From Candidatus Thorarchaeota archaeon (GTDB lineage: Archaea; Asgardarchaeota; Thorarchaeia; Thorarchaeales; Thorarchaeaceae): a DNA stretch of 42,551 bases. The position numbers and the translations under genes were made by a program. Below the pieces are notes generated by a model. It was not told the origin of the DNA. It saw only the letters and a program-made list of their open reading frames with translations, and did no database searches. Positions 31,331 through 34,842 of the stretch are shown in pieces. Where the stretch lies: assembly GCA_048884965.1 (NCBI GenBank), contig JBHLQH010000031.1:1-42551 (forward strand), given 5' to 3'. The first letter of the stretch is position 1. The number at the start of each line of letters is the position of its first letter.

Positions 31331-31456
31331 TTTTTTAGAAACCTTCCTCCACGATGAGGATTCAAAAGGCGTCTATCTCTACCCAATATAGCAACTACTT
31401 TTTATTGAATGGCAATCTTTACACAATCCACGATAATCGAGCCGAGTGGATGGAAG

Positions 31457-32077
31457 ATGGGAACAAAAGTAGGAATTCCAAAAACATATGATTCAAAGAC
31501 AATCGCACTGCTTGCGATTTTTCTGGCAATGGTTTTTGCACTTGAGGTATATCCAATCATTGGCATTACAGATATCCCGATTCCAGGAATCAATTTCACT
31601 CTGGATTGGACTGGAATCCCCTTAGTACTTCTGTTCCTATTCTTTGGACCCGTGTTTGCCTTTCTTGGCGTAGGTTTCATGGGGATTGTAATTGGATATA
31701 GAAATATAGTAGGTGCAACATTCAAGGTATTTGCAGAGTTCTACAAGATACTTGGGATTCTTATGGTTTGGTTGCTTATCAGGAACAGGGATATTTCCTA
31801 TGCAAGACGAGTGATTCTATATGCAATTTCTGCTGCAGTATTTTGTTCAATCGGAATGTTCCTTACCAATATTCCTCTTCTGCAATTTCTCTATGGACTT
31901 TCGATAGAAGCTGCGATCACAGCATCTATTGTTCTGGTCCCATGGAACATTCTCCAGTCTGTCGTCAATGTATTAGCAGGCATGTTTCTCTATCAACTAA
32001 TTCCTGATGATTTGAAGCTCTCCTTCTTACTAGATGCAAGAAACACGAACAGCGACCTGCTACTTGATGAAGAATAA
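31457..32077 (+). CDS. ECF transporter S-component-like membrane protein
   Basis: About six TMs; IALLAIFLA, TLDWTGIP...FFGP, and PWNILQ near the C-terminus. Substrate unknown. Confidence 0.75.
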   Translation: MGTKVGIPKTYDSKTIALLAIFLAMVFALEVYPIIGITDIPIPGINFTLDWTGIPLVLLFLFFGPVFAFLGVGFMGIVIGYRNIVGATFKVFAEFYKILGILMVWLLIRNRDISYARRVILYAISAAVFCSIGMFLTNIPLLQFLYGLSIEAAITASIVLVPWNILQSVVNVLAGMFLYQLIPDDLKLSFLLDARNTNSDLLLDEE

Positions 32078-32235
32078 AAAAGGAGTTCTCAGAGGCGAGA
32101 TTTCCGCTCGCCTCCGTTTCCCCCGGGTTTGTAGGATATCATTGGAAATTGAGTTCCACTCACGTTCAGGATGAAGGCAACCTTTCCCGCGTCTCTATCT
32201 CCAGTTGACCACGATTCCCACGGACCAACCCATAC
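32076..32235 (-). ncRNA. Candidate ~160-nt structured non-coding RNA
   Basis: 107-nt rod hairpin (32125-32231), then a GC-rich hairpin (32081-32124) and a U6 tract. G-U pairs form only on the minus strand; TATA box about 25 nt upstream. Confidence 0.65.
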
Positions 32236-32255
32236 TATCTATTAAGCTACATTTG

Positions 32256-32263
32256 CTTATAAA
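32256..32263 (-). promoter_or_regulatory. Archaeal TATA box for the candidate ncRNA
   Basis: Minus strand TTTATAAG, 24 nt before the GGGUU that opens the hairpin. Confidence 0.55.
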
Positions 32264-32265
32264 TT

Positions 32266-32358
32266 ATTGCCAATATTGGGTTAACTGTAAAACTCTATAA
32301 TGGCAATAATTGCCTTATTATTGCATAATTTTTTACGATTGCCACTACTAGGTTAATT
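32266..32358. promoter_or_regulatory. Operator-like repeat array in divergent promoter
   Basis: ATTGCCAATATTGGGTTAACT (32266) and ATTGCCACTACTAGGTTAATT (32338) match at 17/21. Central palindrome GGCAAT-A-ATTGCC (32302-32314). Confidence 0.55.
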
Positions 32359-32411
32359 TATTAGGTAGTTCTGTTTCAGTAAGTATGCACGCTGTATATT
32401 GAGGAAAACTA

Positions 32412-32915
32412 ATGATGCTGACAAATAAACGGAAACGTCTCGCAAAACAACCAACAGTCCTGAAATATCCATCAGAGCAGGAAGGAATGATCTGGCTAAA
32501 ACGACGCCAAGGCACTGCTCCTTCGGAAATAGCTGATGAGCTTGATGTAACTCGAGCCTATGTCAGCAAGGCACTTAGAAAAGCAGAACGAAAAATCGAA
32601 CTTCTCTTGGACCACGCAGCAAAGATCAACAGAGTAAAGCTCCACCATATGAGTTCTGAAAATGGACTCGCTGTCGGTTATTGTGCAGCATACAAATCCG
32701 AAACCATCATTTCATATTCGCCTAAGATTGGCATACAAGTCTGGTTTGACCATCGTGGAGACTGCGATAGTTGTGCGGATTTTGGAGAATGTGCGACTCT
32801 TATCAGTAGCCTTTCAAATGAATGGGCCGTACCAATAGCTCGCAATGCTGGACCAGTTGATGTTGTGAATGATTTATTCACTGCTATAATGAAACGCTTG
32901 GAATGGAAAGACTAG
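32412..32915 (+). CDS. HTH DNA-binding protein with C-terminal Cys cluster
   Basis: HTH PSEIADELDVTRAYVSKAL; C-terminal H...CDSC-x5-C. Confidence 0.8.
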   Translation: MMLTNKRKRLAKQPTVLKYPSEQEGMIWLKRRQGTAPSEIADELDVTRAYVSKALRKAERKIELLLDHAAKINRVKLHHMSSENGLAVGYCAAYKSETIISYSPKIGIQVWFDHRGDCDSCADFGECATLISSLSNEWAVPIARNAGPVDVVNDLFTAIMKRLEWKD

Positions 32916-33478
32916 AGACCCATTGAACTCAAAGTACTATCCATCGAAGAAGCAGACCAAGTCCCGACATGAACCCATCGAAGATATCCATTAGAATCGA
33001 TTATGGCAATCGTTGGGATATATTCTACATTTAGATATTCAGAGAAACTACTCTGAACTTCAACTCCGCAGTCCCATTCAAACTCATGATCGGACTTGTA
33101 ATCAGCCATCATCTGAGTTGTTTCAGAGATATCGACTGAAAGCGCGATTATCATGACCCCTTCAGTTCTTATCGAGAGCAACTCCTCAAGATATGCAATT
33201 TGAGTTTCACACGACGAACACCAAGTCGCCATCAACTCAACTATTACAGTTTGTCCACGTAGATCATGAAGACTAATTTCACTATTGTCAGACAAGGTCA
33301 TGCTCCAATCAGGTAACTCGATTTGTTGGGCACCCAAGTCAGTTTCAAGTTGGATATTGTGAGAGTCTGTTGGCCAATTTCCTGTATTCTGCATGTACAT
33401 GATTCCAAAGAGGAACCCAAATATCACTAGAACTGCAACTGTTGTAGCTTGTATCAAGACCTTGGATTTCATGTTCAA
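32912..33478 (-). CDS. Membrane-anchored TlpA/ResA-like redoxin
   Basis: N-terminal TM; LPDWSM, MATWCSSC, YIPT.AIID.NG. Confidence 0.88.
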   Translation of the reverse strand: MNMKSKVLIQATTVAVLVIFGFLFGIMYMQNTGNWPTDSHNIQLETDLGAQQIELPDWSMTLSDNSEISLHDLRGQTVIVELMATWCSSCETQIAYLEELLSIRTEGVMIIALSVDISETTQMMADYKSDHEFEWDCGVEVQSSFSEYLNVEYIPTIAIIDSNGYLRWVHVGTWSASSMDSTLSSMGL

Positions 33479-33532
33479 TCTCCTCCTTATCTTCTAGAGA
33501 TTCATTATGATTCTTTTGAAAGGGTACTACTG

Positions 33533-34105
33533 CTATTGATCTAGAAGGGACAGTGTCTGCTGGATTTCACTTGAGGTCCAGACTCCTTCATGATACATTC
33601 GAATATAGCCATCACTATCGATTATTACCACTGTAGGTGTATATCTCAGTTTGAAATAGTAGGTGAAGACGCTATTTGTATCAAGTCCATGTTCCCAAGT
33701 TAGCGAAGCATCATCCTTGTAGCTTTGCATCTGCTCTGTAGTTGTGCTGACATCCACGCTTAGTGATATTACATGAATTCTATCACCCATAGCTGATATC
33801 AAGCTAACAATCTCACCATTCTGTGTTTCACAGGCAGGACATGTCAGAGACATCAAGTCGACGATAGCAAACTTACCTTCAAGATTGCTCAATTGGATGA
33901 CCTTTCCATCAGACATCAAAAGACCCCAATCTGGAGCCTCTTTTGATTGGCCAAAATCTGTATCTGGTGAAAGCGATGATTGTGAGGATCCTGATCCATT
34001 ATTTGAAGTGCCACTTGGAGCGGAGGCAACTGATACTCCAATGACAAGTCCTACTATAACCACAGATGTGAGTACGATAGCCACTAGCATCTTTTCAGGT
34101 TCCAT
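33533..34105 (-). CDS. Membrane-anchored TlpA/ResA-like redoxin (paralog)
   Basis: N-terminal TM and Ser-rich linker; APDW, MSLTCPAC, YTPT.VIIDSDG. Start MEPEK at 34105. Confidence 0.88.
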   Translation of the reverse strand: MEPEKMLVAIVLTSVVIVGLVIGVSVASAPSGTSNNGSGSSQSSLSPDTDFGQSKEAPDWGLLMSDGKVIQLSNLEGKFAIVDLMSLTCPACETQNGEIVSLISAMGDRIHVISLSVDVSTTTEQMQSYKDDASLTWEHGLDTNSVFTYYFKLRYTPTVVIIDSDGYIRMYHEGVWTSSEIQQTLSLLDQ

Positions 34106-34185
34106 GATTGATATTCCCCGAATCGGTTGTGTATATATAATGCACAACTGATGAGATGAATATAAAGTTTGGGGATAGGAGCCCA

Positions 34186-34842
34186 TCAATGAGAAACTTG
34201 CTGTACGCGGAGCTGTTCTGTGTCAAAAGCAGCATCAACTGAATTCTGTACCTGCTTCCAAGGAGCACTAATGAATACTATTGCGTGTGGTTTCGATTTC
34301 TTGTCAATAGTAATGAATCCCTTATTCATCAAGATTCTTGATAGCTTTCGTACTTCAGAGACCTTAAGTCTAGATAATTCCGCGATTTCATTGTATGACC
34401 CGCGACCTTTCGTCCGGATGAACTCGAGTAATCTATACTCAGGAACAGACATAATGATTTCTCGAAGTCTATAGTTTTCTTTGCGAATGAATCCCTCATC
34501 ACCTGATGTCGCAACTGCTAGTGAATTCCTGAGATCATTTATCTCTTCAAGCAATGCCTGTCGTTCTGATTCGAACCGTCCAAAAACACCACGAGATTCA
34601 TGAACCAGCTCCGCACTAAGATCGGTCCCAAGGCCATCTAGAGCTTCACGAGATGCCGAAACGGCTTCACGGAGTACTCCTATCATATCACTGGATTCAA
34701 TCCATTGACCATTGATGAGCGATTCCAATTGCCCATAATAGTTCTCAAGTCTTCGAACCCATGTGTCACGAACTTCTTGAAAGACACCAGCCATTTTCAA
34801 AGTCAACCTAGCTGCATTATCATCTGGACTGTTCATGTTCAT
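34186..34842 (-). CDS. Coiled-coil protein with C-terminal winged HTH
   Basis: Helical N-terminus; RLLEFIR...SYNEIAELSRL...VRKL...LMNKGFI. Confidence 0.7.
   Translation of the reverse strand: MNMNSPDDNAARLTLKMAGVFQEVRDTWVRRLENYYGQLESLINGQWIESSDMIGVLREAVSASREALDGLGTDLSAELVHESRGVFGRFESERQALLEEINDLRNSLAVATSGDEGFIRKENYRLREIIMSVPEYRLLEFIRTKGRGSYNEIAELSRLKVSEVRKLSRILMNKGFITIDKKSKPHAIVFISAPWKQVQNSVDAAFDTEQLRVQQVSH

Follow-up and report, generated by a model that had tools for sequence, protein, structure and literature searches.

The window analysed here, a stretch of 42,551 nt from a Candidatus Thorarchaeota genome (4.1 Mb, 44% GC, with a tRNA-Sec gene), carries a predicted structured small RNA gene on its minus strand, between a convergent gene for a membrane protein and a divergent gene for a transcriptional regulator. 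The features of the locus are as follows.

31409–32077, plus strand: convergent gene of an ECF S-component-like membrane protein, a neighbour and not a constant partner
32076–32233, minus strand: structured small RNA gene of about 158 nt, recognised by its fold and 13 homologous loci, with a putative start 22–24 nt after the TATA box
32076–32081, minus strand: U6 tract, by its sequence a probable terminator, abutting the stop codon of the convergent gene
32082–32124, minus strand: 3′ hairpin, with covariation in its core helix (core 32090–32116)
32125–32231, minus strand: long rod of nested helices, 107 nt, from the minimum-free-energy structure and pair probabilities, with a middle part variable in length and sequence
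32154–32161, minus strand: asymmetric 8-nt bulge with a conserved GUGGA beside the GAG/CUC helix, invariant in alignment A2 and present in locus L097
32209–32219, minus strand: conserved seed GGGAAUCGUGG, 11 nt, reverse-complementary to the 3′ arm in the C-rich-loop RNA family
32256–32263, minus strand: TATA box of the RNA at fixed spacing, with an identity of 0.93 across 12 homologs
32266–32284, minus strand: operator TTAACC-N7-GGCAAT, from a motif search, directly upstream of the RNA's TATA box at the BRE position
32302–32314, no strand assigned: palindrome GGCAATTATTGCC, a possible third site, similar in several homologs
32338–32356, minus strand: second operator, adjoining the TATA-like box of the regulator gene (32357–32362, plus strand)
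32412–32915, plus strand: divergent HTH regulator gene with a Tfx/sigma70-r4-like N-terminus and conserved C91, H114, C118, C121 and C127

Beyond the regulator gene, and convergent on it, two tandem genes of membrane-anchored AhpC/redoxin-type proteins with CxxC motifs are located at 32912–34189; the second of them is missing in some relatives.

The sequence-only reading had proposed a novel RNA at this place, and its description of the fold proved accurate. All helices that it listed are present on the minus strand and lie within its minimum-free-energy structure, seven G–U pairs can be counted in them, the TATA box TTTATAAG is located at 32263–32256, 24 nt ahead of the 107-nt rod (32231–32125), and the second hairpin (32124–32082) follows the rod directly and is itself followed by U6 (32081–32076). 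The element is also GC-richer than its flanks, its 51% standing against 29% for the spacer upstream and 42% for the whole window, and does contain the 12-codon ORF, of which the homologs carry no conserved version. The folding energy of the minus strand corresponds to a z-score of -2.0, with 9 of 200 shuffled sequences folding equally well, and to -2.6 after trimming, while values of -1.1 to -1.2 were obtained for the plus strand. The folding excess over chance in this one sequence is modest, and the comparative evidence is far stronger.

A comparison with Rfam, which had been put forward as the check on novelty, revealed 0 matches in the window at the gathering scores of the Rfam 15 covariance models, only chance-level matches at E-values up to 10, and 0 matches in eight homolog and partner loci. 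Known RNA classes were also considered individually. ARAGORN found no tRNA or tmRNA in the window; archaeal SRP RNA (RF01857, a single gene with a fold of about 300 nt) has its full-length match, below the family cut-off, on contig C50, and the gene for archaeal RNase P RNA (RF00373) was located on contig C16. A C/D box guide was rejected, since there is no 5′ C box and only 6 of 11 homologs have CUGA after the hairpin, as was an H/ACA guide, in view of an ACA that is conserved after neither stem and no canonical K-turn register on inspection. As for a SECIS element, both upstream minus-strand redoxins are ordinary CxxC proteins with no in-frame UGA, and the RNA has its own promoter. A riboswitch or cis-acting leader would call for a constant same-strand downstream gene, and none exists among the homologs. 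The 5′ end of Y RNA, the T-loops of T-box or RNase P RNAs, TPP and cobalamin riboswitches, K-turns, hammerhead and twister ribozymes, group II intron domain V, and CRISPR repeats were dropped by eye, the partner motifs being missing or not conserved in the homologs.

Conservation of the RNA, its promoter and its regulator

A DNA search yielded two relatives, and the remainder were found by following the orthologs of the regulator. Altogether, 13 homologous loci (11 full and 2 partial) were collected from seven genomes in two genera, six of the host's genus and one of another, and from six assemblies. No further true copies turned up in 86 genomes of the family with a model of the promoter and 5′ end, and exact-pattern scans of metagenome and genome contigs returned only G004 plus apparent chance matches. 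The element is single-copy and tied to one clade of the regulator.

Alignment columns of the operator have an identity of 0.85 and those of the TATA box 0.93; the value falls to 0.50 over the spacer that leads to the start, rises to 0.95 for the seed and drops again to 0.58 beyond it. The TATA box and the seed are 43 nt apart in 9 of 11 homologs; in G013 the seed is duplicated in tandem. In the core helix of the 3′ hairpin, 90% of cells are paired, compared to 45–59% in slid controls, and two-sided changes occur at 5 of 10 pairs, a count that is inflated by the relatedness of the homologs, which are not independent. A long 5′ fold of about 95–150 nt is predicted in all 11 full homologs, the one of G013 being weak. 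The rod persists, with helix registers shifting between subclades, which is why a single consensus fold (MAFFT and RNAalifold) failed. The GUGGA bulge is confined to one subclade (alignment A2 and L097), and the other five homologs are without it. Variable pairs are mostly G–U on the minus strand and not A–C, in line with the earlier suggestion that the G–U pattern reflects selection at the RNA level.

The surrounding genes are less constant. The ECF-like gene is replaced by other genes in G001, L090 and G013; on the strand of the RNA, no gene follows in this genome (G000), G004, L088 and G005, and differing genes follow in G006, G013 and L090. Of the promoter and terminator claimed for the RNA, the promoter is well borne out, operator and TATA box being conserved at fixed spacing, and the terminator is weaker, since one subclade reads through into a gene; the U6 tail is loosely conserved, as a pyrimidine tract only. 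At L080 (623–1480, G006) and L083 (G003), the right arm of the RNA and its hairpin double as coding sequence for the signal peptide and linker of a secreted, membrane-anchored protein, and the G003 gene has an internal deletion beginning just after the hairpin. The operator/TATA spacing, the covariation of the 3′ hairpin, the G–U pattern, the loss of the ORF in homologs and the negative Rfam result support a stand-alone minus-strand non-coding RNA with its own promoter and outside the known families, and the minus-strand RNA gene is very probably real.

The motif TTAACC-N7-GGCAAT has two matches in the window, one beside each of the divergent TATA boxes, and 0 in shuffled sequences. This operator shared with the divergent regulator was missed in the sequence-only reading, as was the complementarity to a second RNA family described below. 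Across the genome, the operator profile matched only the two regulator loci, so that the RNA is the sole apparent target of the regulator besides the regulator's own gene. Operator-like sites were found at 17 of 30 loci of regulator paralogs, and the RNA-bearing regulator copies form one clade with support of 99/96 on a midpoint-rooted tree. In archaeal promoters, a regulator site overlapping the BRE position suggests repression; because the operator occupies this position, the regulator is probably a repressor, and one could suppose that a metal or redox signal releases it. A close homolog of the regulator is annotated from Candidatus Thorarchaeota, and a fold search with the protein revealed no significant solved relative.

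The family of the regulator, combining an HTH domain and a Cys/His cluster, has up to about eight matches per genome (the window gene and the paralogs L054–L078), with relatives in Bathyarchaeota and Methanobacteriota, and its genes are mostly adjoined by two to four TTAACC-N7-GGCAAY-like sites. The promoter model also picked up a different regulatory motif in genus g6 (L252, L254–L257 and L266), where a conserved gene is preceded by a conserved promoter carrying GGCAA ahead of the TATA box and a TGCCA site behind it.

Complementarity to the C-rich-loop RNA family

A search of the genome for the seed revealed a second RNA element on contig C18 (58144–58235, minus strand; L179). It belongs to a family, referred to here as C-rich-loop RNA, that occurs in 83 of the 86 Thorarchaeota-family genomes, its core hardly changing over about 55 nt. 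The family has several paralogs per genome, many more in G006, and five in this genome, where copies are located on contigs C49 (4808–4888), C2 (126813–126893), C48 (9008–9067) and C1 (152472–152509). The C-rich-loop RNA has its own TATA box and a covarying 14-bp closing stem. The TATA box and the G–U pattern assign its transcript to the C-rich strand, opposite to the seed, and the seed is therefore complementary to this transcript rather than identical with it. The main copy often follows a radical-SAM gene, and some copies are found beside transposase-like ORFs. The family has no match in Rfam; among the 301 genomes searched, blastn revealed no members in Asgard families beyond this order, a search that distant members may escape, and the viral contigs searched for the partner motif contained none. 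RoxS of Bacillus subtilis is likewise a C-rich-loop RNA.

The RNA in the window is not itself a member of this family: the invariant CCCUCCUACCAC is absent from both of its strands, the family profile misses the window locus, and the relation is antisense. The element's 5′ end and the family's 3′ arm are reverse complements of each other, in register with the family's 3′ end, whereas the element differs from the family in lying on the opposite strand, using a different promoter, lacking the invariant C-rich loop and occurring in only two genera among those searched.

The seed pairs with the partner at 11 of 11 positions in six genomes, and its single variable base stays paired (G–U, A–U or G–C). 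It remains fixed while its pairing partners in cis change between homologs. When 17,232 seeded sites across the genome were ranked for complementarity to the partner's 3′ arm, the element came first once self matches were set aside (-29.6 versus -26.8 kcal/mol), and in the reverse search the partner ranked fourth. When the model of the promoter and 5′ end was run blind on 86 genomes, its best further matches were partner genes, on their antisense strand (E-value of 5.8e-4 in G002 and of about 0.002 in G006 and G003). Co-folding favoured the same duplex in seven of seven genomes, with the 5′ end of the element in register with the 3′ end of the partner and full-length energies, as raw values without a shuffle baseline, of -12 to -32 kcal/mol. 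The first 32 nt alone gave -9.9 in this genome compared to -5.8 ± 2.8 for shuffled sequences, which is moderately better. The G005 copy is antisense to the partner over about 40 nt, into the partner's inner hairpin (E-value of 9e-4 within the homolog set, significant only at the predefined locus).

In this genome, most of the seed is engaged in the RNA's own rod (mean unpaired 0.2), and the seed covers the flank of the partner's C-rich tract and the closing stem, not the invariant C-rich tract itself. The site in the partner is nearly constant, so that true compensatory change in trans is not visible. Some complementarity between the two RNAs would be expected from shared descent alone, and the long antisense match of the G005 homolog suggests such an origin: the RNA probably arose as an inverted copy of a C-rich-loop RNA gene placed behind the promoter of the regulator.

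A putative sponge and its alternatives

Considering these data, one could hypothesise that the element is a stand-alone, transcription-factor-controlled RNA sponge that pairs with the C-rich-loop RNA and titrates it, a reading to which we assign about an even chance. The divergent Cys-rich HTH regulator would control transcription of the small RNA from the minus strand. The 5′ end of the transcript would then pair with the 3′ arm of the C-rich-loop RNA (C18, 58144–58235, minus strand), nucleating on the exposed CCAC of the partner's loop and proceeding to invade its closing stem, and the partner could thereby be titrated or inactivated. A conserved segment complementary to a small RNA, as a sponge should have, is present. 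Concerning independent expression, the promoter and operator are conserved, and one shallow metatranscriptome run gave no reads or contig over the element and one contig over the regulator gene. More tentatively, and with clearly less confidence, a two-layer circuit could be proposed, in which a near-universal multicopy RNA is switched off through strand invasion of its closing stem by a trans-acting anti-RNA born from inverted duplication and governed by a metal- or redox-responsive regulator.

The most serious alternative, though an unlikely one, is a regulated small RNA with another task, such as binding of a protein or RNA through the GUGGA bulge or the hairpin, in which the match to the C-rich-loop RNA is only a vestige of the inverted duplication and structure or promoter function accounts for the retention of the seed. 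Such an RNA would explain why the seed of this genome forms pairs in cis, why its spacing to the TATA box is fixed, as expected of a DNA element, and why there is a second conserved motif, the GUGGA bulge, with no counterpart in the partner. Structure alone, however, would allow the seed to covary with its cis partners, and it is the partners that change while the seed is fixed. Other targets were sought as well: neither the 5′ segment nor the 3′ arm finds an mRNA start region with which it pairs better than shuffles do, targets near start codons do not clearly exceed shuffles for either the element or the partner loop (a comparison based on crude gene calls and a small number of shuffles), and no complement to Thorarchaeota 23S or 16S rRNA was found for the seed or the partner loop; the GUGGA bulge has one mRNA start-region match above its two shuffles. 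It is rather improbable that the element is instead a leader that remained from the mRNA of a secreted protein, with this mRNA as the real target of the C-rich-loop RNA, the gene lost, and the leader decaying or retained as a decoy. This would fit G006 and L094, where the element overlaps the start of an ORF with a signal peptide (in G006, a complete ORF of about 285 aa from a large Thorarchaeota protein family), the loss of the middle of the corresponding gene in G003, and the frequent position of regulator paralogs opposite protein genes. Yet the gene-fused state occurs in one nested subclade only and is missing from the deeper branches G013 and G005 and from the seven-member clade (on a tree with a midpoint root only), and the gene-less copies are not decaying, since they keep the seed, the covarying hairpin and a new conserved bulge; a retained decoy would itself be a sponge.

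There is little probability that the plus strand is the functional one, as a degenerate member of the C-rich family within the 3′ UTR of the ECF-like gene, or that the locus is a DNA element such as the relic of a mobile repeat. The plus strand shares with the partner family a layout of hairpin followed by rod, its z-scores equal or surpass those of the minus strand in several homologs, and the C-rich family is multicopy, with some copies next to transposase-like ORFs. Nevertheless, the plus strand has neither the family's invariant CCCUCCUACCAC nor a visible promoter, in some homologs the ECF-like gene is not the neighbour, operator and TATA box point along the minus strand, where the variable pairs are mostly G–U, and the element is single-copy and confined to one regulator clade. 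Least credible of all is a leaderless mini-gene for a 12-residue peptide, for which speak an AUG at the putative start in most homologs and recurrent GIV or EIV codons. The comparison of homologs largely refutes it: the third codon is a stop in G004, the AUG is missing in G003, the frame is shifted in L090 and G005, the length of the ORF varies, and no synonymous change is seen in the seed.

Known counterparts and further observations

Neither the putative sponge nor the C-rich-loop RNA was described in the literature searched. The first of them is very probably a structured RNA gene absent from the catalogues and restricted to this lineage, with its own regulator and one specific candidate partner. 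A close counterpart is QrrX of Vibrio cholerae, a sponge of Qrr1–4 under the adjacent regulator QrrT; in both cases, a small RNA gene lies beside that of a transcription factor and a conserved stretch pairs, or is predicted to pair, with a multicopy small RNA family (PMC9732341). QrrX is bacterial, requires Hfq and RNase E and has been proven experimentally (PMC9732341), whereas the Thorarchaeota RNA, recognised from sequence alone, is archaeal and rod-shaped, looks like an inverted copy of its partner and has a Cys-rich HTH regulator. RosA of Bacillus subtilis, a sponge of RoxS and FsrA, is similar in that a transcription factor controls it and its pairing partner is a small RNA, but effects on the levels, processing and activity of RoxS have been reported for it (PMC8216469), while the pairing in Thorarchaeota is predicted only. 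The only proposed archaeal sponge found in the literature searched is RrrR(-) of Sulfolobus acidocaldarius, an RNA reverse-complementary to another, regulatory RNA and suggested to titrate it (PMC5961385). RrrR(-) is the full reverse complement of RrrR(+), in contrast to the Thorarchaeota RNA, which is complementary to its partner over 11 to about 40 nt and resides at a separate locus with its own fold and its own regulator.

If the sponge reading is correct, a lineage related to the ancestors of eukaryotes would have layered RNA-on-RNA control by a trans-encoded sponge with its own transcription factor, and an inverted gene copy with a captured promoter would be a simple route to the origin of such regulators. 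The pairing also offers a testable handle on the C-rich-loop family, nearly invariant across Thorarchaeota, and since both RNAs are short, it can be tested in vitro without a culture.

Several features of the C-rich-loop family were recorded in passing. The 5′ hairpin arm of the RNA could alternatively pair with the C-rich loop. An expanded variant of the family in G006 (contigs C78, C84, C106, C126, C251 and C373; L196, L200, L202, L204, L205, L178 and L219) combines variable 5′ parts with a constant 3′ part carrying CGAUGA or CUGAUGA; one copy is located about 570 nt upstream of a 23S rRNA gene, and the expansion suggests mobility. A near-intact copy in G060 (C86, 19995–20115; L086/L253) has a TATA-like sequence on its G-rich side and is possibly an independent young inverted copy. 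Short hairpins with GGGGGGAG as their 5′ arm, complementary to the partner's C-rich loop and thus possible targets, occur in G000 at C13 ~13546 (minus strand), C4 ~31180 (minus), C42 ~7734 (plus) and C3 ~109673 (minus), the one on C13 immediately preceding a gene whose start resembles a signal peptide. The same genome contains dense arrays of tRNA genes with divergent sequences on C4 (~160880–163300, 17 genes) and C9 (108216–108648, five genes), which perhaps derive from integrated mobile elements.
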